From an uncultured delta proteobacterium (GTDB taxonomy: Bacteria; Desulfobacterota; Binatia; UBA9968), in contig CAWFJP010000003.1 in NCBI GenBank assembly GCA_963816145.1, forward strand, positions 576,001-640,000: a stretch of 64,000 nt of DNA. The letters run 5' to 3'. This document shows, in pieces, positions 4,671 through 47,765 of the stretch. How positions within the stretch are numbered: position 1 is the first letter of the stretch; each line of letters begins with the position of its first letter. Both the position numbers and the translations under genes were made by a program. Below the pieces are notes generated by a model. It was given only the letters and a program-made list of their open reading frames with translations. It did not search any database and had not been told where the DNA came from.

Positions 4671-4692
4671 ACAAGCACCTAAGACACCGGCG

Positions 4693-5559: not shown

Positions 5560-8500
5560 ATGATTCATATACTTAAAAATGGCTTAGACCCTGTGCCCGA
5601 ACAGCAGGCGATCCGCGACAAGTGTTTTCACCCCTCGGGCGCGTTCGTCGAGTTTCCGATCGAAGATGTCGAGGCTTCGATTCCGGCTCGGTTCGAAAAA
5701 ATTTTCCGGCAGCACCCTGATCGGATCGCGGTCAAAACCGAGACCGGCGTCGTCACTTACGGCGAACTCAATGCCATGGCTAATCGGTTCGCCAAGAGTC
5801 TGTTGCAATGCACCGGGCCACGAGCCGGGCTGGTCGCACTTCTCTTGGAAAAAGATGTGGCCCAGGTTGCCGCCATGCTGGGAGTGCTGAAAGCGGGAAA
5901 GTTCTTCCTGATTCTGGACCCAACCTTCCCCAAAGCAAGGCTCATCGCCATGCTCAAGGGCTCGTGGGCGAAGTTGGTGGTGACCAACCAGCGCAATGCT
6001 TCGTTAGCCAATGAAATTGCAACCCCGGACTGCGAGTTGATCCAATGGGAAACCATCAATGAGTCGATTCCCGGAGATAATCCCGAGCTACCCATCGCCC
6101 CGAAAGCACTCGCGTTTATTAATTACACTTCCGGCTCGACGGGAGAGCCTAAAGGTTTGCTTCGAACCCACCGGATGATTTTGCATAACATCATGCTGCG
6201 CACCAATCTCATCCATGTCTGTGAACAAGACCGTATCAGCCTGCTTTCGTCCGGCACATCCAACGCGATCACCAATTCCTTCCTGGCACTGCTAACCGGC
6301 GCGGGGCTTTATTCCTTGGAGGTCAAAAAGGAAGGTGCCGTACGGCTCGCCCATTGGCTCGCGGAGGAAAATATTACCATCGCGCCGATGAGTTCGCCGC
6401 TTTTTCGCGGCCTCTGCGAAACCCTGAATGGAATCAGAAACTTTCCAAACCTGCGCGTGATACGACTGAGGAGCGAGTCGGTCTACGGATCAGACGTTGG
6501 TCTTTACAAACAGTATTTCTCGCCAAATTGCAACTTCGTCACCGGGCTATCCTCAAACGAGACAGGACCTTTAGCGGATTACTTGATCGATCACGATACG
6601 GTTGTAACTGACAGCGCGGTCCCGGTCGGCTATGCGGCGCCGGGTAAAGAGGTGGTGCTTCTCAATCAGGACGGTGAAAGAATCGGCTTTGACGAAGTCG
6701 GCGAGATTGCGGTTCGGAGTCGATATCTATCGCCCGGATATCTGCGCAATCCGCGACTAACCAAGGCTAAATTCCGGCGCGATCCAACCGCAACCGGCAG
6801 TCGCATTTACCTCACCGGTGATTTGGGGCTGATGCTTCCCAACGGCTGTTTGATTCACAAAGGGCGCAAAGACTTTCGCGTGAAAGTCCGCGGCTACCCA
6901 GTCGATATCAAAGAGGTCGAGATCGCGCTTCGCGCCCATCCGAGCATGCACGACGCGGTCATCACGGCTCGACAGAACCAGTTAGGAGAAACCACGCTCG
7001 TCGCCTACTTCGTGACCGCCTCTGAACAGGTTCCTACGGTGAGTGAGTTAGCGAGGTTCTTGGGTCAGACCCTGCCCGATTACATGATTCCGGCCACTTT
7101 TGTTAGGCTCAACAGCATGCCACTCAACCCGCAGAACAAAGTCGATCGCGCGGCGCTTCCGCCGCCGGCCGAGACGCGCCCCAACCTAGACACCCCTTTT
7201 ATGGCGCCGCGCAGCGACGAAGAAAGAGCAGTGGCTGAAATATGGGCGGAGGTTCTCGGTATCGACCGCGTCGGCATTCACGACGATTTTTTTGACTTGG
7301 GCGGCCATTCGCTGGCGGCCACAAGGATCGTGACGCGCGTGATCGAAAAGTTTCACGCAGAGCTGGCCCTGCAGGTCCTATTTGATTCACCCACGGCGGG
7401 AAAAATGGCGGCGGCAGTCCGGGAGCGTCAAAGCTTGGATCATCAGCTTAGTTCTCAGCCATCCAGCGATTCGGTACAGGCACGACCTGGCGAACTCAGC
7501 ATCGACTTCACGCCATTTCCGAAGGAAGACGTTGAACGATCGATCCCCGAGCGCTTCGAAAAGATTGTGCGCATGTATCCCGACAAGATCGCGGTCAAAA
7601 GTGGGAATGAGGTGGTTACCTACGCGCAACTCAACGCCATGGCCAATCGGGTAGCACGACGCATAGTTTCCGAGAACGGAGCTGAGCCGGAACCGGTGGG
7701 ACTGTTAATCGACAAAGGTGTCGAACAGACAGCAGCCATGTTGGGGGTCTTAAAAGCGGGCAAGTTTTTCGTGCTTTTTGATCCGTCGTTTCCGTTGGAG
7801 CGAAATTCGGCAATATTCGAAGACACATCCCCTCGTTTGATATTGGTAGACGCTAAGAATACGCCGTACGGATGCAAACTGACAGACACAACTTCTAGCC
7901 TCATTACATTTGAATCGATTGATCCGAACTCAGTTTCCGATGATCTCACGGTAAAGATTGCACCTGATTCCCTCGCCTATGTCGTTTACACCTCAGGTTC
8001 AACGGGACAGCCGAAGGGTGTTCTTCAGACTCATCGGAGTAGGCTGCATTTCGTGATGGTGTACTCAAAGATGCTCAGTTTGTCGCCCAACGATCGGTGC
8101 ATCCTCCTGACCTCTGGCACGGCAAACACCGTTGCGAATAGTCTTTTTGCTTTGTTGAACGGTGCAGCACTGCATCCGATTAACGTGAATGAGCTCGGAC
8201 TTTCTAGGCTTGCCGGTTGGATCATTGACGAGAAGATATCTATATGCGCAATAAGCGCGCCGTTATTTCGCAATCTCTGTGAGTCTTTGACGGGCAACGA
8301 GAAGTTTGCGGACCTTCGCGTTCTGCGCCTCACGAGCGAGGCGTCTTATAAAAGCGACTTCGAACTGTACAAACGATTCTTCCCACGCACTTGTTGTTTA
8401 GCAAACATGTTGGCGCCTACCGAAGCGGGAATCCTACGACAATTTTTAATGGACCACGAAACTCAGATTAGTGGTGATGAAATCCCGCTAGGGTATCCAG

Positions 8501-11500
8501 TTGACGATACGGAGATCTTTTTACTTGACTCCAAGGGCAGAGAGGTCGGTTGCAACGAAGTTGGTGAGATTGTAGTGCGGAGTCGATATCTTTCTTCGGG
8601 ATATTGGCTCCGCCCGGAACTGAACAAAGCAAAATTCAAAGCCGATCCACACGAGGCCGGTCAACGGTTTTATTACACCGGAGATCTTGGATTGATGCTT
8701 CCCGACGGCTGTTTGATTCACAAGGGTAGAAAAGACTTCCGAGTAAAGATCCGCGGTTACGGCGTAGAGATTGGAGAGGTCGAAACAGTGCTCCGGAGCC
8801 ATGCAGCCGTCAAGGATTGCGTCGTTGTCGATCGCAAAGGTGATTCAGGCGAGACCAAACTCATTGCTTATTATACTTCGTCGGCGACATTTATCCCGAA
8901 CACGAGCGAATTGCGCAAGTTTTTGAGCCGATCACTTCCGGACTACATGGTGCCATCCATGTTTGTGGGGCTGGAGACAATACCGCTCACGCCCAACGGC
9001 AAGTTAGATCGTCATGCATTGCCGGAACCTGGCGGCCGACGTCCGGACCTGGACATACCGTTCCAACCTCCAAGGACAGACGTGGAAACACGCGTAGCTC
9101 AAATTTTTACCGAGTGTACGGGCATAGAGCGCGTGGGCATCGACGACAACTTTTTCGAGTTAGGCGGAGATTCGCTCCTTTTCACACGACTTCTTTCGCG
9201 AGTAAGCGTGATGTTTCAGCGGGAATTCTCGATACAGGAGTTATTTGAAGCTCCTTCTGTTGCCGGCATTGCTCGCCTGCTCGAATCACCAACGCAGCCT
9301 GCTGTCGTGAAAGCTGAACCCACTCTCTCGCTAATTTCGAAAGATACGCCAGTACCGCTCTCGTACTCTCAGCAACGATTGTGGTTTCTCGACCAGTTTG
9401 ACCCGAGAAGTTTCGCCTATAATCTCTTTGCCGCCTTCCGGCTCAAAGGCGACCTCAATGTAGCGGCATTAGAGCAGAGCTTCAACGCGATTATCAGGCG
9501 CCATGAAATCCTGCGAACGGTGTTTCAATCCGAGAATGGCAACCCGATACAGGTCATTTTGCCTAATTTGGCAATCAAGATGCCTTTGGTTGATCTGAGA
9601 GCGATCGCCTCGGAAGCAGCCCGCTGGACGGAAGCCCGCAGGATGTTCACAGAAGAAGCTCAGCGGCCCTTCGATTTGGCCACTGGCCCTTTGGTCCGAA
9701 TCACGCTACTGCAACTTGCCGACGATGAGTATATTTTACTGCGAGCGATACATCACATAGTTTGTGACGGCTGGTCTGTGGGAGTTCTGTTTCACGAGCT
9801 ATCCGAAATCTATGAGGCTCTATCAACCGGACAACCATCGCCGCTTGCCGACCTGCCTACCCAATACGGAGATTATGCCAAATGGCAGAGGCAATGGTTC
9901 CAGGATGAGCGTCTCGAGTCTCAGTTATCCTATTGGAAAGAGCAGCTCGACAATATCGCGACCTTGCAACTACCCACCGATCGTCCGAGGCGGACCGCAC
10001 AGGCGATTCGTGGAGCACGGCGGTATTTTGCATTCTCAGATGCACTCTCCACCGAGCTCAAAAAGTTAAGTCACGAACACGGGGCGACTCCCTTCATGAC
10101 CTTGTTGGCGGCTTTTCAAACGCTGCTGCACCGTTACAGCAATCAGACCGATGTCGTGATCGGTTCTCCGGTGGCCGGGCGAACCCGAAAGGAATTCGAT
10201 GAACTTATCGGGTTCTTTCTGAACATGCTGGTGCTGCGTCTTGACCTCTCGGCGGATCCAACTTTTGCCGAGACAATTGCACGAGCACGAAAGGTATGCC
10301 TAGGAGCCTTGAGTCATCAAGAGTTGCCTTTTGAGAAACTTGTCGAAGAGCTGCATCCCGATCGAAACCTAAGTCACAATCCGTTGTTTCAGGTGAGTTT
10401 TGCTTTTCAAAATACTCCACGATTTCCCCCGCGGTTGTCCGGTGTTGAAGTGGAGGAGCTGGAAGTCGACACCGGCATCGCCAGGTTCGACCTACATCTT
10501 TTCATGGAAGAGATGGACGGACATCTGCAAGGATACTGCGACTACGATTCGAACCTGTTCAATGCGGATACCATCGAGAGGATGCTCGGCCATTTTCAGA
10601 CTTTACTGCAAGGTATCGTGGCCGACCCCAACCAGCGCATCTCGGATCTGCCGCTGCTCACCGAGCGAGAAAAACATCAACTCTTGGTCGAGTGGAACGA
10701 CACCCAGACCGATTTCCCAAAAGACAAGTGCATCCACCAGCTGTTCGAAGAACAGGTCGAGAAATCCCCAGATGCCATTGCCCTGGTCTTCGAAGACCAG
10801 CAGCTCAGCTATCGAGAGCTTAACAGCCGCGCCAACCAACTGGCCCACTATCTTCGCAAACGAGACGTCGAACCCGACTCCATTGTCGCATTGTGCATGA
10901 ATCGTTCACTGGAACTGGTCATTGCCATCCTCGGCGTGCTCAAAGCCGGTGGCGCCTATATGCCCATCGACCCTGAATTGCCAGCTCAACGACTCCAGTT
11001 CCTGCTCGAAGACGCCCAAGTTAGGCTGCTTCTCACCCAAGACAAGCTCCGCTCCGCATTGGCCGATTTTGCCGGTCACATTGTTTGCCTGGACAGCGAT
11101 TGGCACAAGCTAGCGGACCAAAGCCATGAGGATCCCCAGCATCACGTCAGAGGACACCATGCGGCTTATGTCATCTACACCTCTGGCTCCACTGGAACTC
11201 CGAAGGGCGTGGTTAACGTTCATGACGGGCTACGTAGCCGCATACAGTGGATGCAGGAAAGTTATCAGCTTACTTCTGCAGACCGGGTGCTGCAGAAGAC
11301 CCCCTTTACCTTCGACGTCTCGGTCTGGGAGTTTTTATGGCCGCTGATCAGCGGGGCTTGCCTCGTCGTGGCGAGGCCGGGCGGCCATCGAGATAGCTCT
11401 TATCTCGTGCAGCTCATCCAATCCCAGCAGATCACGACGCTTCATTTTGTTCCCTCCATGCTCGAGGTGTTTTTGCAGGAACCCGGAGCCGAACGTTGTA

Positions 11501-14500
11501 CGAGTCTGAGGCAAGTTATCTGTAGCGGGGAAGCATTATCGTACGAACTGCAACAGCGCTTCTTTGAGCGCAGCACGGCCAGACTACACAATTTGTACGG
11601 CCCGACCGAAGCCTCGATCGATGTAACCGCTTGGGAATGCAGGAAGGATAGTGACCTTCGGATCGTCCCCATCGGACAGCCGATTGCCAATACGCAGATC
11701 CATATCCTAAACGTTAATCTTCAGCCGGCACCCATCGGTGTGACAGGACAGCTTCATATCGGCGGGGTGGGGTTGGCCCGGGGATATCTGAATCGTCCTG
11801 AGCTGACCGCAGAGAAGTTCATCACCGATCCCTTTAGCCAATTGCCCGGCGCCAGGCTCTACAAGACCGGCGATCTAGCGCGCTACTTACCTGACGGCAA
11901 CATCGAGTTTCTCGGCCGCATCGACGATCAAGTGAAGATCCGCGGCTTTCGCATCGAACTGGGTGAGATCGAATCCGTGCTCGCCCAACATCCCGCCATC
12001 CAACAGGCGGTGGTGCTCGCAACAGAAGACACGCCCGGAGACAAGCGGCTGGTGGCTTATAGCGTTGCTACTGATGGCTCCGCCCCTTCGGCGCACGATC
12101 TGTGCAGCTATCTGCAACAGAAGTTGCCCGAGTATATGGTGCCGTCGGCATTCGTATTCCTCGATTCGCTGCCACTCACACCCAACGGGAAGCTCGACCG
12201 CAAGTCGCTACCCGCACCCGACCCAATCAGACCCGAACTGGAGAAAACCTTCACCGCCCCCCGTACTCCGAAGGAAGAAATGCTGGCCAAGGTCTGGGCG
12301 GAAGTCTTGAAAATCGACAAGGTCGGCGTCAACGACAACTTCTTTGGCCTTGGAGGCCATTCGCTGTTGGCGACCCAACTCATCTCTCGTATTAGAAACG
12401 ACTTCAGAATCGATTTGCCGTTACGAACCCTATTCGAGAGTCCCACAGTGGCTGGTATAGCCGAGCACTTGGAATCGACTTGCAGGCTGCAAACAGTGTC
12501 AAGCACCTTACCCGTTTTGCTAGAAGCGAGAGACGAGGGATATCCGCTTTCGTTCGCTCAGGAGCGCTTTTGGTTTCTCGACCAACTTCAACCCAACAAT
12601 CTGGCCTACAGCATTGGATACGGGTTTAACCTCGACGGACCTTTAAACGTGAATGCCCTAGAGCAAGCGATTTCAGAGATCGTTACAAGGCATGAAGCTT
12701 TGCGCACAACGTTTCACCAACGAAATGGCCGGCTAGTCCAGATGATCTCCGAGCAATGGTCCTTTCGACTATCGAATGTCGATCTGAGCACGAAACGCGT
12801 AACCGAGATGGACGCGGAGGTCCAACGAATTTTTGAGAGCGACCGGAGGCGAGGTTTTGATCTGTCCGCCGACTTGCTGTTGCGGGCCACGTTGTTGCGA
12901 CTGGGCGAGAATAAACATGTTCTCATCCTCACAAGTCATCACATCGCTTGGGATCACTGGTGTATTGAGGTATTTTTCCGCGAACTCTCCGCGCTTTATC
13001 AGGCATTCGCTAACGGAAAACCCACTCCTCTGTCGGCGCCACGGCTTCAGTATAAGCACTATGCGCTTTGGCAGCGAAACGCGTTCCGGGATGAGGAGGC
13101 CGGACGTCATTTAGCATACTGGAAACAGCAGCTTGCCGACGCTCCGCGCGATTTACATCTACCTACTGATTATCCACGCAAGCCATTACAGAACCGACGT
13201 GGAGTCCGTCAAACCCTCATCCTTCCGGAGGAATTAAATAATGCGCTACGCTCCTTGAGCAGAGAAGCTGGGGTCACGCTCTTTATGACGTACCTAGCCG
13301 CTTTCCAAACACTGCTAAATAGAATCACCGGCCAGGATGATATTGTCGTCGGCACTCCGATTGCCGGTAGAAACCTCCTTGAGACAGAAAAACTCATCGG
13401 CTTATTTCTTAACACCCTCGCCTTGCGAACGAACCTTTCAGACGACCCGAGCTTTCTAAAACTATTGACAAGGGTTCGAGATCTAGCGCTCGGAGCTTAC
13501 GATCATCAGGACATCCCTTTTGAAAGACTTGTAGAGGAATTGCAGCCGGAGCGAGTTTTGACTCACACGCCGCTCTTTCAAGTGTTCATTAATATGTACA
13601 ACTTCAAAGAAGCCACGCTCGAGCTCGACCGGCTGTCGGTGAAACGTCTTCCTGTCGGTGAATCAGGAGAGCAGTTTGATTTAACTTTTACAATCCGCGA
13701 AGACGCCGACGGGACGCATTTAACATTCGGGTATGATGCCGAATTGTTCGAGCACTCTACTATTCGGCGCATGCTGGGTCACTTTGAGACGTTGCTGGAA
13801 GGGATTGTGGAGGATCCGGCCCGCTGCATTTCGGATTTACCGCTTTTGTCCGATGCCGAGAAGCAGCAATTGTTGATCGAGTGGAACGACACTCGGAGGG
13901 ACTATCCAAAAGACCAATGCGTTCACGAACTGTTTGAAACTCAGGTCGAGAAAACCCCGGACGCCGTAGCCCTTCGCTTCGAAGACCGGCAGCTCACCTA
14001 TCGAGAACTGAACGGAAGAGCCAATCAGTTAGCACACTATCTCATCAAGCTCGGCGTCTGTCCCGAGATGCTCGTCGGCATCTGCGTGGAACGATCTATT
14101 GAAATGATCGTCGGCTTGCTGGGTATTCTTAAAGCGGGCGGGGCCTATGTCCCCTTGGACCCAAGTTATCCCAAAGATCGTCTAAAACTTATAATGAATG
14201 ACTCCCAGATATCGGTATTGTTGGTGAACAGCGGCTTAGGCGAAAAGAGTGGATCAAGCAAAGATGACAGCGATTTTCCATCTGTCGTTTTCGATACTCG
14301 CATCAAACGGGTATGCCTCGACCGAGACCGACCGGTCATCGAGCAGGAAAGCCGGGAAAATCTCACTGCGCCTGTCCAGCCCGGTGATCTTGCCTACGTC
14401 ATCTACACTTCGGGCTCGACCGGAACCCCCAAGGGAGTCGCGATTGAACACCGCCAAACGGGGGCTTTCTTATCTTGGGCAAAATCCGTTTTTAATCAGG

Positions 14501-15789: not shown

Positions 15790-15805
15790 AGAAATAGTGA
15801 CGGAT

Positions 15806-16624
15806 ATGAATGATTCGGCAAACCAGGAATTCAAGCTTCCGCCAGAACAGCAGGCGATCCGTGACAAGTGTTTCCATCCGTCGGGAAAGTTTATTGAATT
15901 TCCAAAAGAGGACGTCGAGTCATCGGTCCCGGAGCGGTTCGAAAAGGTCGTCGCACAGTTTCCCGAGCAGCTCGCGGTCAAAATGGGAGATCGAACGCTG
16001 ACGTATCAGGAATTAAACCACGCCGCGAATCGCCGGGCACACGCCATCCTGACACAACGGGGAGAAACGCAAGAACCCATTGCGCTGCTGATGGAACATG
16101 ACTCTCCATTGTTAGTCGCAATCGTCGGAGTATTGAAAGCCGGCAAGATTTGCGTGCTTCCGGACCCACCGTTTCCCAAAGCCAGAAACGCCTTCCTGTT
16201 AGAAGACTCGCAAGCAGGTCTCCGCATCACCGACAGCACAAAGCTTTCCTTAGCCGTAGAATATGCCCATGACAGGTGTCCATTTATAAATGTTGGCGAG
16301 TTGAACTCCGGGCATTCAATTGACAACCCGGGATTGTCAATCGCGCCCGATCAATTTGCTTTTCTCGTCTACACATCGGGCTCGACCGGACTACCTAAAG
16401 GTGTCATTCAGATTCACCGAAATCTGCTGCCCGATAGCCTGTTCGATTGCAATGGCCTTCATATTCGTACTGACGACCGGGTAGCGCTTCGCCACTCCTG
16501 AGGGTCAAGGGGACTGGGCAAATAGGAGATGGAAGGGAGCTTGTCTAAACTAAAGTCGCTTACCGATGAGGAAGCAATGCAAATCCCAGCGGAAGAACGC
16601 AAAACAGAGCACAAGCGAGACTGA
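15806..16624 (+). pseudogene. NRPS B remnant: N-terminal part of an A* domain joined to an orphan C-terminal tail
   Basis: Close paralog of the 33315 A* domain up to RVAL, with a stop at 16501. The next ~120 bp encode GLGK*EMEGSLSKLKSLTDEEAMQIPAEERKTEHKRD*. Confidence 0.8.
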
Positions 16625-16625
16625 G

Positions 16626-21846: not shown

Positions 21847-21901
21847 GTAACCATGAGCCGTATTACTAAGAAAGGCGGACCGTTCTCGATCGGAGGTCAC
21901 T

Positions 21902-22026
21902 GGGAGTGATTCTTCCAAGCGAAACCGGCTAATGACCAGGAGATAGCTCGAATGATACGCGAGATAGAGGATATGGCGAAAGACGAAGCTGAGAAACAGC
22001 TCATTGGACAGAAAATGCGAAGCTGA
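21902..22026 (+). pseudogene. Deletion scar of an A*-T gene (5' end joined to 3' tail)
   Basis: GGAGGTCACT-GGG-AGTGATTCTTCCAAGC matches the start of the 30509 gene with ATG changed to GGG. It continues directly into QAKPANDQEIARMIREIEDMAKDEAEKQLIGQKMRS*. Confidence 0.75.
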
Positions 22027-22040
22027 AAACCACACTAGAT

Positions 22041-30453: not shown

Positions 30454-30508
30454 TTAACCATAGCCGCGCTACTAACGAACGGGGAACCGTTCTCGATCGG
30501 AGGTCACT

Positions 30509-32479: not shown

Positions 32480-32489
32480 AGCGCAGACG

Positions 32490-33308
32490 ATGAATTCAGG
32501 CGATCTGAAAAAGCAATTAGACGAACTATCTTCTGCAAAACTTACGCTACTCGAGAAGCGGCTTCTCGAAGCCGGCATCAAGAGCTCGGCGCTACATAAA
32601 ATTCCGCGACGGACCGACCGCGAGTTTGCACCGCTTTCATTTACTGAGCGGCGGCTATGGTTTTTAAACCAACTAGAACCGAAAAGTCCTGCGTACAATG
32701 AAGCCCGCATTCCACACCTCACGGGCCCTCTAGACTCGAAGGTTTCGGAGCGATGGTTCAACGCCCTCATCGACCGCCACGAAACTCGGCGAACGACGTT
32801 CGCGACGGCTGCCGGCTCGACGATCGCAATCCGTGACCTCCGCAGCCTTCTCCAACGCAAGCTCCCCGACTACATGGTGCCCGCGGCCTTCGTGTTCTTA
32901 GACTCGCTGCCGCTTACGCCCAACGGCAGGCTCGACCGCAAAGCGTTTCCGGCTCCCGATCAGTCCAGACCCGAGCTAGACGATACCTTTGCCCCCCCAC
33001 ACACTCCGGTGGAGGAATTACCCGCTAACATTTGGGCCGAGGTTCTCAAACTCGACAAGGTCGGCATTCACGATAACTTCTTCCAACTGGGCGGACATTC
33101 CCTCCTCGCCACGCAGATCGTTTCGCGCGTTCGCGATGCCGTCAAATTCGATTTGCCGTTAAGGACCTTGTTCGAAGCACCGACGATCCATCGCCCGGTT
33201 CGACAACTGCAAGACCTCCGAGATAAACAAGATGTCACACAGACGGCGCAAACTGCCCCCATTGCACGGGAGCAATATCGAGCTCAAAACTCGAGCGATC
33301 AGGACTGA
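32490..33308 (+). pseudogene. NRPS F: internally deleted C-A-T gene, in frame (docking helix + start of C fused to end of Asub + intact T)
   Basis: PLSFTERRLW...RHETRRTTFAT runs straight into AAGSTIAIRDLRSLLQRKLPDYMVP. GGHSL is retained and A10 reads NGR. Confidence 0.8.
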
Positions 33309-33314
33309 TGGACA

Positions 33315-38471: not shown

Positions 38472-38723
38472 CAAACGCGCATTGATAGACGTGACAGCCT
38501 ATGACGAACGGGTTTTAAAGAAAGCGTTATGCGATGTGGGAAAGACGACTACACCTTTCCTCGTTCTGTTGCTCTGGAGCGCTCGTGGTCTCTGCAACGG
38601 ATGTGGGCCGAATGCGCCCCGTATCTGGCTCGTCGGCTACTCGAATGGGGTGTGAGATCACCGGAAGTAACGCGACCACGACTAGCAACTTAGTTGTATC
38701 AAGCAAGAAAGAACGCTGTAATT

Positions 38724-40655
38724 ATGAATGATTCGGCAAACCAGGACTTCAAGCTCCCGCCAGACCAGCAGGCGATTCGCGGCAAGTGTTTTCATCCGTC
38801 GGGCCAGTTCGACCCGTTTCCAACCGAAGATGTGGATAAATCGATACAGACGCGGTTCGAGAAAATTGTCGACCGATATCCAGACCACGTTGCCATCAAA
38901 GCCGGCAATGAAGAGATCACGTATTCAGCTTTGAATAAGGCGGCTAACCGCCTGGCTCATGGAATCTTGGCGATACGCGGCGCGAGCCGGGAACCTGTGG
39001 GGTTTTCGCACGCGCACGGTATCTTACCTATCATTTCGCATCTGGCCATTCTCAAGGCAGGTAAGATTTCTGTCGAGCTAGACCCGGCCGCACCAACGAG
39101 CCGTAACTCTCATATTATGGTTGATTCAACCGCTCTAGTCCTCGTGACTGATAATCAGACAGTATCGGTGGCAGGCGGATGGATCAACGCTGACCAATTT
39201 TTGTTAAATCTCGACGAGCTGAACTCTGCCCTAGATGATCGAAACCCAAATATCCCTTCCTCGTCGGAAGATATTGCGTATATACGCTATACTTCCGGCT
39301 CCACAGGACAGGCAAAGGGCGCGATTAAAACCCATCGCCATGTGCTGCATGAAGTCAGGGATGCCACCAATTGTTTCCGGCTCTGTATCCACGATCGAAT
39401 TTCCCACTTGAGTCGGGAATCCATGGGGAAGTTCGTCTTTTCGGCCTTGCTGAACGGTGCAACACTGTATCCACTGGACACTAAACAAGGTGTCTTAGTG
39501 CATTTAGGCGAATGGCTCGTTCGAGAGGGAATTACCACCTACCAGTCATTTCCAACGGCCTTTCGTTATTTTACGCGCAGCTTGAACGGCCACGAACGAT
39601 TTCCCAGCCTCCGCTTGATCCGTCTCGAAGGTGAACTGTTATACAAGGGAGATGTCGAACTGTACAAAAAGCATTTTACCCCTGAGTGCCTGTTGGTGAA
39701 TGTCTATTCATCGGCCGAAACTGGTACGGTCTCCCTCTATTTTATCGACCACAAAACTGAGATTGCCGGGAACGGAGTCCCGATGGGGTACCCGCTGGAG
39801 GGTAAGCAGGTTATGCTGCTAAATGATCAGGGCAACGACCTTGGTAACAATCAAGTAGGCGAAATCGCCGTAAAAAGCCGGCTTCTTTCATCGGGCTACT
39901 GGCAACGGACAGACATCACTCAGCAGAAGTTCTTAAGAGACCCAAAAGAGATTGGTCAGCAAACCTATTTGACCGGAGATCTGGGAGTCTTTTCAGAACA
40001 AGGCCTTTTGCACCATCTTGGTCGAAAGGATTTGCAGGTAAAGATCCGCGGTTTCCGAGTAGACGTTGGGGAGGTTGAGACGACTCTCGCCGATCATGAA
40101 GTCATAAAAGAAGCTGTCGTTGTCGCGCGAGACGATCAATTCGGCAACAATGAACTTTTAGCCTACATTGTGACGCAAAATGATGCGACGGTGAAAACCT
40201 CAGTGTTGCGAGAGTTCTTGCACGAAAGACTCCCCGAGTACATGATCCCAGGGCATTTTGTGAAGCTGGACCGTATTCCGCTTACCGCCACGGGTAAAGT
40301 GGATCGGCTTCAATTGCCGGCGCTTAATGACTTGCGGTTGGAAAACAGCGGGCGTTACGTTGCGCCGCGAACCGAAGTCGAAGCAAGGGTCGCAATCATT
40401 TGGCAGCAGGTTTTGTCTTTGGATCGGGTCAGTGTCGAAGACAACTTCTTCCAATTGGGCGGCCACTCCCTGCTGGCAATCCAGGTCGTCTCGCGCATCC
40501 GCGAGAATTTCGCTGTCGACGTGCCCTTAAGCGACATATTCGAGGCGCCAACCATTGTAGCGTTCGCGCAACTTATTCAAACCCATAACATCAAGAAAAA
40601 AGCTTCCCATCAACAACCAATTTCTCGCCTTGTACGAGAACATTACAAGGCATAG
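38724..40655 (+). CDS. NRPS H: stand-alone A*-T didomain
   Basis: MNDSANQDFKLPPDQQAIRGKCFHPSG (start inferred from similarity to 15806), YTSGSTGQAKG, GGHSL, tail QPISRLVREHYKA. Confidence 0.9.
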   Translation: MNDSANQDFKLPPDQQAIRGKCFHPSGQFDPFPTEDVDKSIQTRFEKIVDRYPDHVAIKAGNEEITYSALNKAANRLAHGILAIRGASREPVGFSHAHGILPIISHLAILKAGKISVELDPAAPTSRNSHIMVDSTALVLVTDNQTVSVAGGWINADQFLLNLDELNSALDDRNPNIPSSSEDIAYIRYTSGSTGQAKGAIKTHRHVLHEVRDATNCFRLCIHDRISHLSRESMGKFVFSALLNGATLYPLDTKQGVLVHLGEWLVREGITTYQSFPTAFRYFTRSLNGHERFPSLRLIRLEGELLYKGDVELYKKHFTPECLLVNVYSSAETGTVSLYFIDHKTEIAGNGVPMGYPLEGKQVMLLNDQGNDLGNNQVGEIAVKSRLLSSGYWQRTDITQQKFLRDPKEIGQQTYLTGDLGVFSEQGLLHHLGRKDLQVKIRGFRVDVGEVETTLADHEVIKEAVVVARDDQFGNNELLAYIVTQNDATVKTSVLREFLHERLPEYMIPGHFVKLDRIPLTATGKVDRLQLPALNDLRLENSGRYVAPRTEVEARVAIIWQQVLSLDRVSVEDNFFQLGGHSLLAIQVVSRIRENFAVDVPLSDIFEAPTIVAFAQLIQTHNIKKKASHQQPISRLVREHYKA

Positions 40656-40682
40656 AGATCGGCTCAAACCTCTGGATGATCC

Positions 40683-43600
40683 ATGACCAATCGACTTGAG
40701 GCAGAATCTTCCGCAAATGTTCATCGCGACACCTACGCGTTTCCCCTCTCCTTCGCGCAACAGCGATTATGGTTTCTGCAACGTCTTGACCCGGATAGTT
40801 CGACTTATAACATACCGACGGCGTTGCGCCTCCGCGGTGAACTCAACATTAAGGCTCTGCAACAGAGTATTGATCATTTGATTGAACGCCACGAGGTTCT
40901 TCGCACCACGTTTGCGATACGTGAGGGCGAGGCGGTGCAAATCGTTCATCCAACATTGCCAGTATCGATCTCGAAGACAGATCTGCGCGACATCGGGGCG
41001 TCTCGACGGGAAGAAACGCTCCGCGGTCTTGTACGATTCGATGCTCGACAACCGTTTGATTTAGACCGCGGTCCACTTTTAAGGGTTAAGTTAATTCAAA
41101 TCGCAGATAACGAGCATGTGTTGGTTTTGAACCTGCACCATATCGTTTCTGACGGTTGGTCCATGGACGTGATGTTCCGCGAGCTATCGGTGCTTTATCA
41201 AGGCTACTGTGGGGAGAAGCCAATATCTTTGCCCGACCTCCCGATCCAGTATGCCGACTATTCTGTCTGGCAGCGCAATTGGCTGCAAGGGACCAACCTC
41301 GACCAGCAACTTTCCTATTGGCGAAAACAACTCGATGGCCTATCGACGCTACAGCTCCCTATCGACCACCCGCGGCCAGCGGTGCAAACTTACCGAGCCG
41401 CTAACCAGAGTCTGGAACTTCCGCCGCACCTCTACGAGGCAATTAGAAATCTAAGCCAGCGCGAAGGCGTCACCCTGTTCATGACCCTGCTGGCGGCGTT
41501 TCAGACTCTGCTCTACCGCTACTGCGGCCAGAAAGACATCGTGGTGGGATCTCCCATCGCCGGCCGAACCCGCCAGGAAACCGAGGGACTGATCGGCTTC
41601 TTTGTCAACACGCTGGTGCTTCGCACTGATCTTTCCAAAAACCCGCCATTTCGAAAATTACTCACCCGGGTGCGCCAGGTGGCGCTGGACGCCTACGACC
41701 ATCAGGATATCCCCTTTGAAAAACTGGTCGAGGAATTACATCCCGAGCGCAATCCCAGTATCTCGCCGCTGTTTCAGGTCATGTTTGTCTTCCAGAACAA
41801 CGCCGATCGGCCCTTGGAATTCAAAGATCTCACCGTTGTACCTATGCGGACGGATAGTCAAGTCGCTAAGTTTGACCTTTCGCTTACCATAGCCGATAGA
41901 GAGGGTACACTCCGCGCCTCACTCAATTACAATACCGAGCTTTTCGATGCCTCGACCATCGAGCGCATGGTCAGTCATTTTCAGACGTTGCTCGAAGGCA
42001 TCGTAGCCAACCCCGATCAGCCGGTCGGCGAACTGCCGCTACTCACCGCGGCCGAAAAGCACCAGTTGTTAGTCGAATGGATCGACACCAAGACCGACTA
42101 CCCCAAAGACAAGTGCATCCATGAGCTCTTTGAGGCTCAAGTAGAGAAATCTCCAGACGCCATCGCCGTGGTCTTCGAAGATCAACAAGTCACCTACCTG
42201 GAACTCAACAGCCGCGCTAACCAGCTCGCTCACTACTTACAAAAGCTCGGCGTCGGCCCTGAAATGCTCGTCGGACTTTGTCTGGAAAGATCGATCGACA
42301 TGATCGTCGCCCTGCTCGCCATCCTCAAGGCCGGCGGCGCTTATGTCCCGCTTGATCCGAGCTACCCCAAAGATCGCCTGGATTTCATGCTCCAGGATTC
42401 CAACACGTCGGTCATTCTCACGCACAAGCCTCTGGCATCGATGCTACCCGCGGCGAACGCGCGAATAATATTTCTTGACGAGGAAGACTGGCGAGCGATG
42501 ACGCCGGGCCTTGCTGATAGGGCCAACCTAACTGCCCAAATCAGTCCGAACCAAGCCACCTACGTGATCTACACTTCAGGCTCCACTGGCACACCCAAAG
42601 GCACCCTGGTTACCCATTACAATGTGGTGCGTCTATTTCAAGCGACCGAAGCTTGGTTTGGGTTTAATTCAAACGACTCTTGGACGCTGTTTCACTCCTA
42701 TGCGTTCGACTTCTCGGTCTGGGAGATCTGGGGCGCCCTATTGCACGGCGGCAAGCTTGTCATTGTGCCCCAGGAGACTACCCGTTCGCCGCAAGAATTT
42801 GCCGCGCTACTGCTCAGGCACCAAGTGACCGTGCTCAATCAAACCCCTTCTGCGTTCCGCCAGTTGATTCCCGTGCTGATTGGCGATAACGGCCATGATC
42901 CACTCTCTCTGCGGTACGTGATCTTCGGCGGCGAGGCCCTGGATCCCCAGAGCTTAAATCCTTGGTTTGACCGGTTCGGCGAAGACCCGCCCAAACTGAT
43001 CAACATGTACGGCATCACCGAAACGACCGTGCATGTCACCTATCGACCAATTACCAGGGCCGATGCCGCATCGGGAGCCGGCAATGTAATCGGCAAACCG
43101 ATTCCAGACTTGCGAGTCTATCTCCTCGATCGGCACCACTCTTTGGTTCCCATCGGTGTCGCCGGCGAGATCTGTGTCGGCGGTGCAGGCGTTGCCAAGG
43201 GATACTTGGGGCGCAAAGCGCTGACAGCTGAACGCTTTGTCACCGATCCGTTTAGCGAAGACCTTCAAGCGAAGCTTTACCGCAGCGGCGATCTGGCGCG
43301 CTGGCTGCCCAACGGTGAGCTGGAATATCTCGGCCGCATCGATAACCAGGTCAAGATCCGCGGCTTTCGCATCGAACTGGGTGAGATCGAGGCAGTGCTC
43401 GCTCAGCACCCCTCCATCCAACAAGCGGTCGTCCTCGCTCGTGAAGACTCTCCAGGCGATAAGCGGCTGATCGCCTATGTAGTCACCGCTGACGGCTCGG
43501 CTATTTCGGTTCACGACTTACGTAGCTATCTCCGACTCAAGCTGCCCGACTACATGGTGCCCTCGGCCTTTGTGTTCCTCGATTCGCTGCCCCTCACGCC

Positions 43601-46600
43601 CAACGGCAAGCTCGACCGAAAGGCGCTGCCGGCTCCCGATCACAGTAGGTCGAATTCAGATCAGAGCTATAGCGCACCTCGCACTCCAGTGGAAGAATTG
43701 CTCGCTGGGATCTGGGCCGAGGTCCTCAAACTCGACGAGGTCGGTATCCATGACAACTTCTTCGAGCTAGGTGGACATTCCCTCCTAGCCACTCAGTTCG
43801 TCGCGCGCATAAATACAGCGTTCCAGATCGATTTCCCCTTGCGCAGACTGTTCGAGACACCGACGATTGCCGGCCTCGCCGACTCGGTCCAGGCTAGTAT
43901 GGAAATCGAGAAAGACTCACGCACAGTTCGATCCATCGTGCCGGTTCCGCGCAGCAACCACACCCCGCTCTCTTTCGCTCAAGAGCGTTTATGGTTCTTG
44001 GACCGTCTCGACCCCGATAGCCCAACCTACAACGTCCCGGCGGCTTTCCGCTTGGCCGGTGATCTCAACCTCAACGCACTGGAACAGAGCCTAAATGAGG
44101 TCGTGCGCCGTCATGAAGTTCTGCGCACGCTCTTTGCCACCGTCAATGGCAATCCAGTGCAAAAGATTCTGCCCTCGTTGGCCATTGCGCTTACTCCCAT
44201 CGACATTAGCCAGCAGCCAGAAAACGAACGCCAACCGGCTCTACAATCCCTGCTCAAAGAAGAAGCCGAGCGGCCCTTCGATCTTAGCCGTGGACCGCTG
44301 ATACGGGCTCGGCTCCTGCGACTCTCCCCCTTGGACCACGTGCTCGCCTTGAACCTGCACCATAGCGTCTCCGACGGTTGGTCCATGGGCGTGCTCTTCC
44401 GCGAACTCTCGGCACTCTATCAAGCATACGGCTCGGGAGAACCTAGTCCCTTGCCCGAGCTACCGGTCCAGTATGCCGATTATGCGATATGGCAGCGTGA
44501 TTGGTTACAAGGTGAGAACCTCGACGTTCAACTTTCCTACTGGAGAAAACAACTCGACGGTCTATCGACGCTCCAGCTCCCCACTGATCATCTCCGCCCG
44601 CCGGTGCAAACTTACCGCGGAGCTAGCCAGTCCCTAGAACTTTCGGCGCAACTTTCTCAGGCGATCAAGGGTCTAGGCCGGCGTGAGGGCGTTACCCTGT
44701 TCATGACCCTGCTGGCGGCCTTCCAGACCCTGCTCTGCCGCTACTGCGGCCAGCAAGATATTGCCGTTGGCACTCCCATCGCCGGCCGTGTCCGTCAGGA
44801 GATCGAGGGACTGATCGGCTTTTTCGTCAACACCCTGGTCCTGCGCGCCGATCTTTCCAATAACCCGACCTTCAAGGAACTACTGCGACAAGTCCGTGAA
44901 ACTACTCTGGAAGCCTATACTCACCAAGACCTGCCGTTTGAAAAACTCGTCGAGGAACTCCATCCCGAGCGCAATCCCAGCATCTCGCCGTTGTTCCAGG
45001 TCATGTTCATACTTCAGAACAACACTGAACAGCCTTTGGAATTCAAACATCTGACCGTCAACCCTATTCGTAGGGGTAGTCAAGTCGCTAAATTCGACCT
45101 GTCGCTGACAATGTCCGAGAGAGACGGCACACTCCGCGCCGTGCTCAACTACAACACCGATCTGTTCGACTCGTCGACCATCGAGCGCATGCTGGGGCAT
45201 TTTCAGATTCTACTCGAAGGCATTGTCGCCAACCCGGAACAACCCATCAGTGGACTGCCATTGCTGACCGACCCCGAGAAACACCAACTCTTAGTCGAAT
45301 GGAACGACACCAAGACCGACTATCCCAAAGACAAATGCATCCATCAGCTCTTCGAAGAACAGGTAGAGAAAACTCCTAATGCCATCGCCCTGGTTTTCGA
45401 GGATCAACAGCTCACTTACTGTGAACTCAATGCCAGAGCCAACCAACTGGCGCATCACTTACAAAAGCTCGGTGTCGGCCCCAACGTGCTCGTCGCCGTC
45501 TACCTGGATCGCTCGATAGAAATGATCATAGGACTGTTGGGAATTCTCAAAGCCGGTGGGGCCTACGTCCCGTTGGATCCAAGCTATCCCAAAGAGAGAC
45601 TGAGCTTCATGCTGGAAGATGCTCAGGTTCGAGTCCTGTTAAGTCAACGGACTTTCTTATCAAACCTCGACCATCGAAGCGTCGTGTGTCTAGACAGCGA
45701 CTGGCACAAGATCGCCACCCAGAGCACCAACAACCCTCAAAGCAATTTCACTGCCGATAACCTCGCCTATATCATCTACACCTCAGGCTCCACAGGTGCT
45801 CCTAAAGGAACAGAGGTATTTCATCGCGGCGTCTTACGTCTGCTGTTTGGCATTGATTACGCCCGACTCGATAGATCCCAGATGATTCTTCAGCTAGCGC
45901 CGATCTCTTTCGATGCCGCAACCTTTGAAATCTGGGGGGCACTGCTGCACGGCGGTAAGTGCATCTTGTTTCCCGGTAAACCGTCCGACCCTCGCGAGCT
46001 TGGAGCCGTACTAAAAAAGCACCAGATCAACACACTATGGCTCACGGCGGCTTTGTTTAACACGGTGATCGACCAAGAGCCACAGGCCTTAGCAGAAGTA
46101 AAACAGCTACTGATCGGCGGCGAAGCGCTGTCCGTACCCCATGTTAAAACAGGACTCGCGCTGTTACCGCACACCCAGATCATCAACGGTTACGGTCCGA
46201 CTGAAAGCACGACGTTTACTTGCTGCCATAAAATCCCGCGCGCGCTCGATGACAGATTATCTTCTATTCCGATTGGCCGACCGATCGCCAACACGCAAGT
46301 TTATATTCTTGATCCACACCTCAACATCGTGCCAATTGGAGTTGTTGGTGAGATCTATATCGGCGGCGATGGTCTAGCCCGCGGCTATCTCAATCGTCCA
46401 GAACTGACAGCAGAAAAGTTCATCGCCAATCCCTTCATTAGCGATCCCGGAGCGAGGCTTTACGAGACCGGCGATCTAGCCCGCTACTTGGCCGACGGCA
46501 ATATCGAGTTCCTCGGCCGCATAGATAATCAGGTCAAGATCCGAGGATTCCGTATCGAACTGGGTGAGATTCAGGCGGTGCTGGGTCAACACCCCGCTAT

Positions 46601-47192
46601 CCAACAGGCGGTTGTACTCGCAAGAGAAGACACTCCCGGAGATCATCGGCTGGCGGCCTACGCCGTGGCTACTGATGCCTCTACCACTTCGGCGTACGAC
46701 CTGCGTAGCTATCTGCAACACAAGCTCCCGGACTACATGGTGCCGTCGGCATTCGTGTTCCTGGAGTCCTTGCCTGTCACTCCCAACGGCAAGCTCGACC
46801 GAAAAGCCCTGCCCGTTCCCGACCACAGCAGACCCGAGCTAGACGATGCCTTTGCTGCCCCAAGAACTCCTAGCGAGGAGATGCTCGCTAGCATCTGGTG
46901 CACTGTCCTCAAACTCGACAACGTCGGTATCCATGACAACTTCTTCGACCTGGGTGGCCATTCACTGCTCGCTACGCAAATTGTATCGCGGATACACAGC
47001 GCTTTTTCCATCGAACTACCACTACGTCGGCTGTTTGAGTCTCCAACGGTCGCCGAAATGGCGATCATTATCACGCAAACCCAATCGAAACCGGCGCCCG
47101 CGGCAGCGTTAGCGCAAATGCTCCGCGAGGTGGAGGCGATGACGGACGAAGAAGCTGAGAAACAGATTACCAAATCGAGCATGGAAAACTGA
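40683..47192 (+). CDS. NRPS I: C-A(Thr)-T-C-A(Val)-T + acidic tail
   Basis: FPLSFAQQRLW, C motifs HHIVSDG and HHSVSDG, codes DFWNIGMVHK (Thr) and DAFWLGGTFK (Val), tail MLREVEAMTDEEAEKQI. No TE. Confidence 0.93.
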   Translation: MTNRLEAESSANVHRDTYAFPLSFAQQRLWFLQRLDPDSSTYNIPTALRLRGELNIKALQQSIDHLIERHEVLRTTFAIREGEAVQIVHPTLPVSISKTDLRDIGASRREETLRGLVRFDARQPFDLDRGPLLRVKLIQIADNEHVLVLNLHHIVSDGWSMDVMFRELSVLYQGYCGEKPISLPDLPIQYADYSVWQRNWLQGTNLDQQLSYWRKQLDGLSTLQLPIDHPRPAVQTYRAANQSLELPPHLYEAIRNLSQREGVTLFMTLLAAFQTLLYRYCGQKDIVVGSPIAGRTRQETEGLIGFFVNTLVLRTDLSKNPPFRKLLTRVRQVALDAYDHQDIPFEKLVEELHPERNPSISPLFQVMFVFQNNADRPLEFKDLTVVPMRTDSQVAKFDLSLTIADREGTLRASLNYNTELFDASTIERMVSHFQTLLEGIVANPDQPVGELPLLTAAEKHQLLVEWIDTKTDYPKDKCIHELFEAQVEKSPDAIAVVFEDQQVTYLELNSRANQLAHYLQKLGVGPEMLVGLCLERSIDMIVALLAILKAGGAYVPLDPSYPKDRLDFMLQDSNTSVILTHKPLASMLPAANARIIFLDEEDWRAMTPGLADRANLTAQISPNQATYVIYTSGSTGTPKGTLVTHYNVVRLFQATEAWFGFNSNDSWTLFHSYAFDFSVWEIWGALLHGGKLVIVPQETTRSPQEFAALLLRHQVTVLNQTPSAFRQLIPVLIGDNGHDPLSLRYVIFGGEALDPQSLNPWFDRFGEDPPKLINMYGITETTVHVTYRPITRADAASGAGNVIGKPIPDLRVYLLDRHHSLVPIGVAGEICVGGAGVAKGYLGRKALTAERFVTDPFSEDLQAKLYRSGDLARWLPNGELEYLGRIDNQVKIRGFRIELGEIEAVLAQHPSIQQAVVLAREDSPGDKRLIAYVVTADGSAISVHDLRSYLRLKLPDYMVPSAFVFLDSLPLTPNGKLDRKALPAPDHSRSNSDQSYSAPRTPVEELLAGIWAEVLKLDEVGIHDNFFELGGHSLLATQFVARINTAFQIDFPLRRLFETPTIAGLADSVQASMEIEKDSRTVRSIVPVPRSNHTPLSFAQERLWFLDRLDPDSPTYNVPAAFRLAGDLNLNALEQSLNEVVRRHEVLRTLFATVNGNPVQKILPSLAIALTPIDISQQPENERQPALQSLLKEEAERPFDLSRGPLIRARLLRLSPLDHVLALNLHHSVSDGWSMGVLFRELSALYQAYGSGEPSPLPELPVQYADYAIWQRDWLQGENLDVQLSYWRKQLDGLSTLQLPTDHLRPPVQTYRGASQSLELSAQLSQAIKGLGRREGVTLFMTLLAAFQTLLCRYCGQQDIAVGTPIAGRVRQEIEGLIGFFVNTLVLRADLSNNPTFKELLRQVRETTLEAYTHQDLPFEKLVEELHPERNPSISPLFQVMFILQNNTEQPLEFKHLTVNPIRRGSQVAKFDLSLTMSERDGTLRAVLNYNTDLFDSSTIERMLGHFQILLEGIVANPEQPISGLPLLTDPEKHQLLVEWNDTKTDYPKDKCIHQLFEEQVEKTPNAIALVFEDQQLTYCELNARANQLAHHLQKLGVGPNVLVAVYLDRSIEMIIGLLGILKAGGAYVPLDPSYPKERLSFMLEDAQVRVLLSQRTFLSNLDHRSVVCLDSDWHKIATQSTNNPQSNFTADNLAYIIYTSGSTGAPKGTEVFHRGVLRLLFGIDYARLDRSQMILQLAPISFDAATFEIWGALLHGGKCILFPGKPSDPRELGAVLKKHQINTLWLTAALFNTVIDQEPQALAEVKQLLIGGEALSVPHVKTGLALLPHTQIINGYGPTESTTFTCCHKIPRALDDRLSSIPIGRPIANTQVYILDPHLNIVPIGVVGEIYIGGDGLARGYLNRPELTAEKFIANPFISDPGARLYETGDLARYLADGNIEFLGRIDNQVKIRGFRIELGEIQAVLGQHPAIQQAVVLAREDTPGDHRLAAYAVATDASTTSAYDLRSYLQHKLPDYMVPSAFVFLESLPVTPNGKLDRKALPVPDHSRPELDDAFAAPRTPSEEMLASIWCTVLKLDNVGIHDNFFDLGGHSLLATQIVSRIHSAFSIELPLRRLFESPTVAEMAIIITQTQSKPAPAAALAQMLREVEAMTDEEAEKQITKSSMEN
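43344..45454 (+). repeat. 2,111-bp direct repeat, copy 2
   Basis: Identical to 26604..28714. The copies diverge at GAC/GAT just before the repeat and after ...AACTGGCGCA. Confidence 0.93.
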
Positions 47193-47225
47193 AGTGAATT
47201 TGGATAAGAGCGATTCGCTCACAGA

Positions 47226-47408
47226 ATGCGCCACACGACGCTGGAGCAGCGGGTAATCCAGGCTCATCTTTCAGGTCATGTTGACCAGTTTCCAGCCGAA
47301 GATATGGAAAAATTGATATGGACGCGATCCGCCGAAATTGTCTACACACAGCCGGACCGGATCGCCATCAAAGTCGGCATTGAGATTAACTATTCTATTT
47401 ATTTGTAG
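47226..47408 (+). pseudogene. Decayed N-terminus of a further A* gene
   Basis: LEQRVIQAHLSGHVDQFPAEDMEKLIWTRSAEIVYTQPDRIAIKVGIEINYS aligns with the gene H start (DQQAIRGKCFHPSGQFDPFPTEDVDKSIQTRFEKIVDRYPDHVAIKAGNEEITYS). It ends at the merR stop. Confidence 0.7.
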
Positions 47409-47411
47409 GTG

Positions 47412-47765
47412 CTACGATATTAACTTACGCAGCGCCTCAAGGTCTTTCTTGACTTTAATCAAGGCGCTTTTGTATTTTTGCTCGGCAAGCGGCAATTTGA
47501 GCTGATCTTTTTCTTCTTTTTTTACTTCTCTTAGCTTTTTGCGTGCGCCCTCGATGGTGAAGCCTTCGGTGTAAAGCAAGCGCTTGATGTCGAGTAAGAG
47601 TTCGACGTCGCGTTTCTTATAAAGGCGATGTTTCGACGGCGCCTTGGACGGTTTGAGCAAATCGAACTCGGTTTCCCAGTAGCGTAACACGTAGGGTTCG
47701 ACGCCGACGATATCACTGACCTCACCGATCTTGAAATAGATCTTCTCCGGCAGTACAGGCGTCAT
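47412..47765 (-). CDS. MerR-family HTH regulator (conserved ihfA-adjacent type)
   Basis: [12 protein letters not shown]...VLRYWETEF...RLYKKRD...[13 protein letters not shown]. Confidence 0.93.

Follow-up and report, generated by a model that had tools for sequence, protein, structure and literature searches.

The stretch of DNA analysed here (the window) comprises 64,000 nucleotides, C3:576001-640000, of the metagenome-derived genome of an uncultured member of the Binatia (7.82 Mb in 31 contigs, 99.5% complete, 6.7% contamination). On its plus strand, positions 5560-47192 are occupied by eleven co-directional long open reading frames (ORFs), A to K, coding for nonribosomal peptide synthetases (NRPSs). 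We parsed the block with Pfam, using whole ORFs as well as 78 overlapping tiles of 330 aa. The families scoring in 5560-47192 are AMP-binding, AMP-binding_C, PP-binding and Condensation, the sole exception being a DIP2-like C-subdomain in ORF C. The block thus contains the adenylation (A), thiolation (T, PP-binding) and condensation (C) domains of modular carrier-protein NRPSs, with their catalytic motifs: A3, the A10 lysine, HHxxxD and GGxS are present in all modules. Thioesterase (TE), reductase (R), epimerization, methyltransferase and ketoreductase (KR) domains were detected in none of the ORFs or tiles of the block.

If A* denotes a deviant type of adenylation domain and FAAL a fatty acyl-AMP ligase, the layout from left to right is A*-T-A*-T-C-A-T-C-A-T; an A* relic; FAAL-like-T-C-A-T; A*-T-C-A-T-C-A-T; A*-T followed by a remnant-T from which C and A have been deleted; A*-T-C-A-T; and A*-T followed by C-A-T-C-A-T. 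This reproduces, gene by gene, the domain string on which the original prediction of an array of parallel small NRPS lines had been based. Most subunits open with an A-T lacking a C domain and cannot take a chain through a C domain in cis, as had been claimed. No C domain is hidden at the N-termini: the AMP-binding profile starts after about 45 residues in A, E, G, I, J and relic B, too few to accommodate one. A colinear (type A) NRPS has one initiation module, later subunits that open with C, and a domain at its end for release (TE, R or a terminal C). The island has seven C-less A-T starters, only K and the remnant H start with C, and there is no release domain. Nor was any NRPS-linked match to PF00975 or PF07993 found anywhere in the genome, which carries one MbtH gene, far away, and two phosphopantetheinyl transferases.

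The codes of the canonical A domains, extracted from the alignment, are DVWHISLID, DLFNNALTY, DAKNLGLAN, DFWNIGMVH (twice), DVQFIAQVV, DAFFLGVTF and DAFWLGGTF. They agree with the specificities proposed earlier (Ser, Ala, x, Thr, Pro-like, Ile, Thr and Val), the reference codes and the PheA numbering used in the comparison being those that we take to be the accepted ones.

All features of the block described below lie on the plus strand. Gene A (5560..15789; 3409 aa) has the order A*-T-A*-T-C-A(Ser code)-T-C-A(Ala code)-T, with the C motifs HHIVCDG and, in the second C, HHIAWDH, four GGxS sites and a type-1 tail (..EVEATTEEE..). Relic B (15797..16501) consists of 230 residues from the N-terminal start of an A*, matches our own hidden Markov models (HMMs) at positions 1-230 only and shares 74% identity with the beginning of gene I. 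In one independent metagenome run (X4), a 5-nt insertion lies inside B, as expected of dead DNA. Gene C+D (16566..21846) follows, FAAL-like A-T-C-A(code DAKNLGLAN)-T, with one spurious extra base at ~20499-20505. Its starter had been taken for a keto-acid-activating domain (Aketo) and appears instead to be FAAL-like: the best NCBIfam matches of the N-terminus of ORF C are to FAAL, FadD and PvdL-N models, at 245-313 bits and all under the curated cut-offs, and the DIP2-like C-subdomain reaches 23-25 bits, short of its cut-off of 27. The first C domain of ORF C (C_C1) and the beginning of the A after it are 74% and 72% identical to the first C (I_C1) and to I_A2 of gene I, respectively. Since relic B resembles gene I as well, B-C-D looks like a paralogue of I in which A*-T has been replaced by a FAAL-like A-T. 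In the spacer between D and E lies a relic of a type-1 C-terminal tail (..IREIEDMAKDEAEKQL..; 21930..22026), the type carried by A, G and K.

Gene E+F (22041..30453) codes for A*-T-C-A(Thr code)-T-C-A(Pro-like code)-T and has one spurious extra base at 28731-28732; our HMMs place the break between E and F between positions 51 and 58. It carries the first copy (26604..28714) of a perfect 2,111-bp repeat, the second and identical copy of which (43344..45454) lies in gene K. The repeat runs from the end of one A domain through T and C into the beginning of another, within a 4.1-kb region in which E and K are otherwise ~60-80% identical. Gene G (30509..32479) is a standalone A*-T with a type-1 tail. 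Gene H (32490..33308), in which an N-terminal docking helix is followed by C positions 3-65, AMP-binding_C positions 42-75 and a T domain, is the in-frame remnant of a C-A-T module after the loss of ~2.5 kb; the earlier claim of a deleted C-A-T behind A*-T was borne out here by both Pfam and our own HMMs. Gene I (33315..38471) is A*-T-C-A(Ile-type code)-T with a type-2 tail, and its full-length metagenome relatives measure 1689-1715 aa at 61-81% identity. Gene J (38694..40655), the true start of which is probably the ATG near 38724, is again a standalone A*-T, with a type-2 tail. Gene K (40683..47192; C-A(Thr code)-T-C-A(Val code)-T, type-1 tail, motifs HHIVSDG and HHSVSDG) is the sole intact subunit with an N-terminal C domain. 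At the right edge, a 60-aa ORF (47226..47408) without any Pfam or NCBIfam match is a further A* N-terminal relic: its segment C3:623262-623399 is 52% identical to residues 33-79 of J (E 5e-5). Relic B did not figure in the original prediction. The tails of D, F, H, I and J share the motif (I/T)(A/S)P(V/I)(A/V)RE(Q/L/H)Y(R/K), for example ..APVAREQYRV.., and stop just before the position of C-domain PLSFAQ.

The integrity of the block was checked against independent metagenomes. Of the 31-mers sampled from positions 15700-25600, a fraction of 0.59-0.79 recurs in each of 20 of the 24 public runs listed; these 20 belong to 17 wetland and soil metagenome studies dated 2019-2025. Logan contigs of four runs (X1, X4, X7 and X8) were compared over positions 15001-35000. 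At the C/D break, one base is absent at 20499 (X4) or 20505 (X7, X8) in all three runs with cover, X1 having none; at the E/F break, one base is absent at 28731 (X1, X4) or 28732 (X7, X8) in all four. Dropping one base joins C to the frame of D and E to that of F. The two splits are therefore single-base consensus errors of this assembly, C+D and E+F are intact single genes, and the independent runs lacking the extra base rule out frameshift pseudogenization at either place. Independent contigs also span the A/B, B/C, D/E, E/F, F/G and G/H junctions, which argues against a chimeric gene order. Depth over the repeat is about twice that of its flanks in X4, X7 and X8, and the right junction of copy 1 is spanned by a contig of X7. 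The deletion junction in H (~32811-32826) was not clearly spanned in the rows examined, and part of the cover of X1 is missing. Contig joints 15566->18623 (X1 and X7, with sides of 41 and 34 nt) and 35000->15526 were read as cross-mapping of paralogous T domains and not as structural variants. With two of the four apparent breaks in the block being assembly errors, pseudogene calls in this genome need read support. Four other NRPS or A*-T genes are split over adjacent frames (C29:128624-137211, C10:52886-54866, C31:112900-114991 and C30:271305-273531), and these may also be assembly errors, as both tested splits of the window were.

The reshuffling that had been proposed is visible in the relics, the internal deletion in H, the apparent starter swap in B-C-D and the perfect 2.1-kb repeat. 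The proposed expansion in tandem fared differently. The six A* domains of the window are only 38-50% identical to each other and fall, in a quick maximum-likelihood tree, into at least four old subclades, each with solo A* genes from elsewhere in the genome; these identities and the tree, with its SH-aLRT supports, exclude a recent tandem expansion of the starters.

The whole block, from ~4676 to 47410, is a 42.7-kb insertion beside a tRNA-Pro(GGG) gene (4594..4670, minus strand; ARAGORN) that forms its left border, since two congeners, G004 and G006, carry the empty site. From the tRNA-Pro to the sequence corresponding to position 47425 onwards, on the side of a MerR-family regulator (47412..47765, minus strand; Pfam) that is the first gene past the right border, BLASTN measures ~120 nt in G004 and ~100 nt in G006. 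The distance from pheT to the nlpD-like gene is 2.1 kb in G004 (PheT 73% identical) and 3 kb in G006. The stretch of the tRNA-Pro (4591-4675) is 98.8% identical in G004 (BLASTN) as against ~78% for its flanks. Both flanks of the island are housekeeping by Pfam, with pcm and the nlpD-like gene upstream and MerR, ihfA, pheT, pheS, rplT, infC, thrS, pgsA, hflX and dnaE downstream. Pfam found no integrase or transposase among the flank ORFs, nor inside the island, where the 11 NRPS frames were the ones scanned. The island adjoins the 5' side of the tRNA-Pro, and the signs of a tRNA-targeted integrative island were not found, direct repeats at the borders having been searched for less than exhaustively.

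Two further observations concern the flank alone. PheT (48135-50213, minus strand) has 692 aa, with its B3_4 domain from residue 106, and apparently lacks the usual N-terminal tRNA-binding domain; the open frames of the congeners, 700-722 aa, are of the same length class. At 60802-61449 and 63350-63997 lie segments of HMGL-like/carboxylase-type genes, 2.5 kb apart and 72% identical at the DNA level, and an ORF at 60589-62250 overlaps ORFs of the minus strand.

What sets the island apart is A*. It is a distinct clade of NRPS-type adenylation domains without Asp235. A scan of all six-frame ORFs of the genome with our HMMs detected 37 A*-scoring domains, of which three keep Asp235 and group with canonical domains; the clade of the 34 that are left splits off with an SH-aLRT of 99 in the quick tree. 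The window domains are ~35% identical to canonical A domains and stay below the cut-off of the amino-acid adenylation model TIGR01733 (317.4 bits), with 262.3 for J, 243.2 for A and 257.0 for G, against 472.7 for the canonical K_A1. Position 235 was transferred from the canonical domains in the same alignment, in what we take to be PheA numbering; its residues in the six A* domains are S, A, A, A, S and E. The A5 motif is (L/Y/F/M)(S/G/A)(S/T/P)(N/T/A)E rather than YGPTE. Among the homologues of J (at least 120, of which 97 were anchored by ALLxGA), D and E are absent at 235 in 85 of the 97 and K or R stands at 239 in 75; Lys239 is found in G, I and J and in 61 of these 97. Of the 101 anchored homologues of I, 83 lack D at 235. 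Ahead of 18 A* domains of the genome runs a conserved N-terminal extension, PPEQ(Q/E)AIRxKCFHPSGxFVEFP, which in the AlphaFold model of gene J (residues 21-50) reaches a pLDDT of ~88-91, the mean of the model being 80.9. Among solved structures, those closest in fold and sequence are ordinary NRPS A-PCP units, for example LgrA and PvdL, and a protein-cluster look-up with the homologue P0084 returned only generic AMP-binding/PP-binding clusters.

Asp235 is the contact to the alpha-amino group and is replaced in domains that activate 2-keto acids (PMC13643306) and in those for para-aminobenzoic acid (PABA; PMC8837603). From its loss we infer that A* would load a carboxylic acid other than a normal alpha-amino acid, for example a 2-keto, 2-hydroxy, aryl or aromatic-amino acid. 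The non-amino-acid starters of the original prediction are thus consistent with a distinct clade lacking Asp235; the substrate may however be a hydroxy or an aromatic-amino acid and not a plain acyl cap, as one A* of the genome stands after a C domain (C3:20728-29268, below).

Outside the window, the genome has 20 solo A*-T ORFs of 624-735 aa; in other contexts A* precedes ketosynthase (KS) domains of polyketide synthases (PKSs; L089, L091) or occurs in A*-T-C-A-T-C-A-T proteins. None of the 135 ORFs around 20 A*-T loci, four fused forms included, has a C or TE domain by Pfam. Solo genes (e.g. C3:76828-78846, C13:225174-229579 and C17:99671-108268; L072-L087) lie amid genes of catabolic type (amidohydrolase_2, UbiD, OCD, LigB and Rieske), and three further A*-T copies are broken. 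At C15:136186-139515 (minus strand), C17:264144-267566 and C31:177509-181117 (L088, L089 and L090), A*-T stands behind ~480-570 N-terminal residues without a Pfam match at 1e-5; the A*-T gene of L089 sits between an asparagine synthase and a KS-AT-KR-DH PKS. The genome also shows a very large expansion of NMT1/THI5-like solute-binding proteins. A link of solo A*-T genes to these was considered and dismissed: eight of the 20 loci lie near one, which is the chance level because the genome has at least 150 scored matches (486 first-look candidates). Eight of 12 other genomes of the genus, in a tally that includes the unpublished G005, have 2-7 strong A* matches as against 33 here, and none of eight genomes of other families of the order has any.

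Named homologues include Candidatus Binatia, Methylomirabilota, Chloroflexota and Acidobacteriota. The lengths of 120 listed relatives of I(1-640) cluster at ~1,700 aa (A*-T-C-A-T), ~2,340 and ~2,800. Among them 20 carry a thioesterase in cis; six are devoid of C domains, and these comprise forms such as A*-T-A*-T-TE and A*-T-A*-T-A*-T-TE. The same design therefore exists elsewhere as self-contained single-unit genes, some with their own TE, a point in favour of the original prediction. C-less forms, (A*-T)2-3-TE and A*-T-A*-T, are represented by P0126, P0133, P0183, P0203, P0149 and P0152; the (A*-T)2-3-TE proteins imply bond formation without a condensation domain. In P0126, P0133, P0183 and P0203, loading units lacking Asp235 stand straight ahead of the thioesterase. 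A*-T-TE proteins also occur (P0035, P0075). At least 14 of 78 metagenome loci have two or more full A*-T units adjacent to each other, with up to five in a row (L122, L150), these counts being lower bounds as many contigs are short. Fused A*-T-A*-T-C was found in L122, L162 and L163 and in the congener G012 (L100), and solo A*-T genes are common in metagenome contigs too. When genome contigs were searched with the A* alignment, through generic A3 and T motifs, the matches were mostly ordinary NRPS A domains of 28-42% identity.

Biosynthetic gene clusters of Binatota were first reported in 2021, according to PMC8692599. The literature on NRPS clusters of Binatota/Binatia yielded nothing on the present layout, and no description of runs of Asp235-less A-T starters was found, which is not proof of absence since subscription journals and MIBiG were outside the scope of the search. 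This kind of cluster, which is widespread, appears to be unstudied.

Taken together, these data suggest, at about even chances, that the island encodes parallel short TE-less NRPS lines, each primed by a non-alpha-amino acid. Five or six such lines would lie side by side, each with its own C-less loading didomain: five different types of A*-T, gene A having two A*-T in tandem, and one FAAL-like A-T. The loaded cap would be coupled to Ser-Ala, x, Thr-Pro-like, Ile or Thr-Val, hence to one or two ordinary amino acids, by a C domain that either follows in cis (A, C+D, E+F and I) or belongs to the adjacent protein (K for J, and formerly H for G). The outcome would be capped mono- or dipeptidyl thioesters, with release presumably in trans or spontaneous, and the lines would work independently of one another. 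Of the earlier interpretation as a library of short synthetases or branch-building units, this retains the C-less starts, the distinct clade, the standalone relatives and the reshuffling; the tandem expansion and the Aketo starter are abandoned.

Several facts weigh against parallel lines of this kind. J keeps a Glu at 235 and might still bind an amine. The protein at C3:20728-29268 (FAAL-like-T-C-A*-T-C-A-T) has a true A* after a C domain, so at least that substrate needs a nucleophile. The 20 solo A*-T genes outside any NRPS context mean that A*-T need not be a peptide starter. No NRPS of the genome bears a TE or R domain, which leaves the products without a stated route of release. The tails of D, F, H, I and J, resembling T-C linkers, are held in common while only K starts with an intact C, a hint of convergence on K rather than of independence. 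Finally, there are three relics and one deleted module in the island.

The hint of convergence can be developed into an explanation of its own, in which D, F, (H), I and J pass their chains to the C-first K (C-Thr-T-C-Val-T), and formerly also to H, giving a combinatorial family X-(aa)n-Thr-Val. We consider it unlikely, less so than the other alternatives. It draws on the tail motif, which J, the partner of K by adjacency, has as well; on K being the only intact C-first protein; on the 2,111-bp repeat, which makes the T-C segments of E and K identical; and on metagenome loci in which two to five A*-T genes lie upstream of a C-first gene (e.g. L121, L125 and L170). Printed precedents are alternative starter modules (cited in PMC8097286) and a shared PKS feeding two NRPS lines (PMC7524897). 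However, the common tails may be a legacy of duplication, as DNA homology runs past the stop codons into the spacers (20945-21920 versus 29552-30527), and K is likewise without a release domain. A somewhat smaller probability goes to A*-T units being free-standing acyl or aminoacyl carriers that act in trans, in acylation of Ser/Thr side chains, in C-independent coupling or in a non-peptide role, with fusion to C-A-T as one use of several. The 20 solo genes, the lack of C or TE domains in the 135 neighbouring ORFs of 20 loci, the solos in metagenome contigs, the C-less (A*-T)2-3-TE and A*-T-A*-T proteins, the fusions ahead of PKS KS domains (L091, L089) and the two consecutive A*-T of gene A without an intervening C all point that way. 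Yet in A, E+F and I an intact C follows A*-T covalently, which is the normal position of a donor, and the split pairs J/K and G/H retain the same order.

Decay offers a different kind of explanation, the island being the non-functional remnant of a larger cluster. Relic B, the deleted H, the terminal A* relic at 47226-47408 and the tail relic in the D-E spacer would fit, as would the lack of a release domain, transporter, tailoring or MbtH gene in the 11 NRPS frames scanned within the island and its absence from G004 and G006. We regard this as improbable: the two frameshifts stem from the assembly, ~13,000 codons read through without a stop and keep their catalytic motifs intact, and near-identical sequence recurs across 17 studies between 2019 and 2025 (20 of the 24 runs listed). 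An artefact, with paralogous NRPS genes collapsed or joined into a chimera during assembly, has to be considered for a metagenome-derived genome with two proven single-base errors in the block and an estimated contamination of 6.7%, all the more as assemblers are notoriously misled by perfect repeats such as the one of 2.1 kb. It is very improbable, since short-read contigs from four other runs span A/B, B/C, D/E, E/F, F/G and G/H and these runs show doubled depth over the repeat.

The reading as parallel lines primed by A* allows a broader and clearly more speculative proposal, which we put forward tentatively. A*-T could be an undescribed and widespread class of self-contained loading units, forming an interchangeable library of starters, dozens of them in a genome such as this one, for short TE-less C-A-T lines, PKS modules or TE domains, to which they would connect either by fusion or in trans. 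Such units would have lost Asp235, would carry a Cys/His-containing N-terminal extension and would have diversified their pockets for non-alpha-amino acids, and the island, instead of being a single assembly line, would produce short capped peptides in combinatorial fashion. If so, a large unnamed group of soil and wetland NRPS loci breaks the colinear rule of one starter, and A* is a new adenylation subfamily with substrates beyond current predictors, which alters how such clusters are read in genome mining. The island would also provide natural cases of starter swapping and module exchange of use for engineering. The biochemical questions raised are the cargo of A* and the release of products from TE-less lines.

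As regards known systems, the vatiamides are reportedly made by a branching cluster with shared modules. The alternative starters of the anabaenopeptin synthetase (Rouhiainen et al. 2010, as cited in PMC8097286) are, as in the island, C-less A-T loaders that lie side by side and can feed one C-first subunit. However, anabaenopeptin has two amino-acid starters and one complete line with a TE, as against seven starters (six A* without Asp235 and one of FAAL type), several short lines and no TE in the island. The laxaphycin/scytocyclamide locus (PMC7524897) shares with the island several lines in one cluster and broken colinearity; there, one initiator serves several long lines that end in a TE, whereas the island has many initiators and very short lines. 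Near-identical segments at the joints of subunits may permit promiscuous hand-over.

NRPS-like enzymes of the A-T-TE and A-T-R types, such as furanone and quinone synthetases, likewise activate non-amino acids with A-T units lacking a C domain. A*-T-TE and (A*-T)2-3-TE proteins are found among the relatives of A*, whereas the window's own units lack TE and R domains and are linked to C-A-T modules. In lipoinitiation of the FAAL-T-C (PvdL) type, a FAAL-like A-T is likewise followed by C-A-T as in gene C+D, in which the NCBIfam PvdL model aligns over positions 6-567; all FAAL matches of C+D are below the curated cut-offs, and the module apparently replaced an A*-T, given relic B just upstream and the likeness of C_C1 to I_C1. 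The Ak/KAL 2-keto-acid domains of CrpD-M2, cereulide and Dol15D-M2 resemble A* in the replacement of Asp235. According to PMC13643306, though, they always have a KR behind them, are preceded by a C domain and constitute a separate ANL clade, whereas A* has no KR, is usually N-terminal and has amino-acid A domains (LgrA) as its nearest solved relatives. As an Ak/KAL-KR-T module, A* would have the replaced Asp235 and lack the adjacent KR, no KR or adh_short match being present in any tile. The PABA A domains of albicidin, cystobactamid and lapcin (PMC8837603) have Ala at 235 and are common in soil metagenomes; their Lys239 is found in G, I and J as well. PABA systems differ in that the island has no genes for PABA biosynthesis or tailoring among the 11 NRPS frames scanned. 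An A* specific for PABA was rejected: the DNA pattern for the published signature F-A-[VIM]-x-x-K-E is absent genome-wide, and the three matches to the peptide pattern lie in unrelated ORFs. Each of the closest known systems thus shares one feature with the island and departs from it in others.

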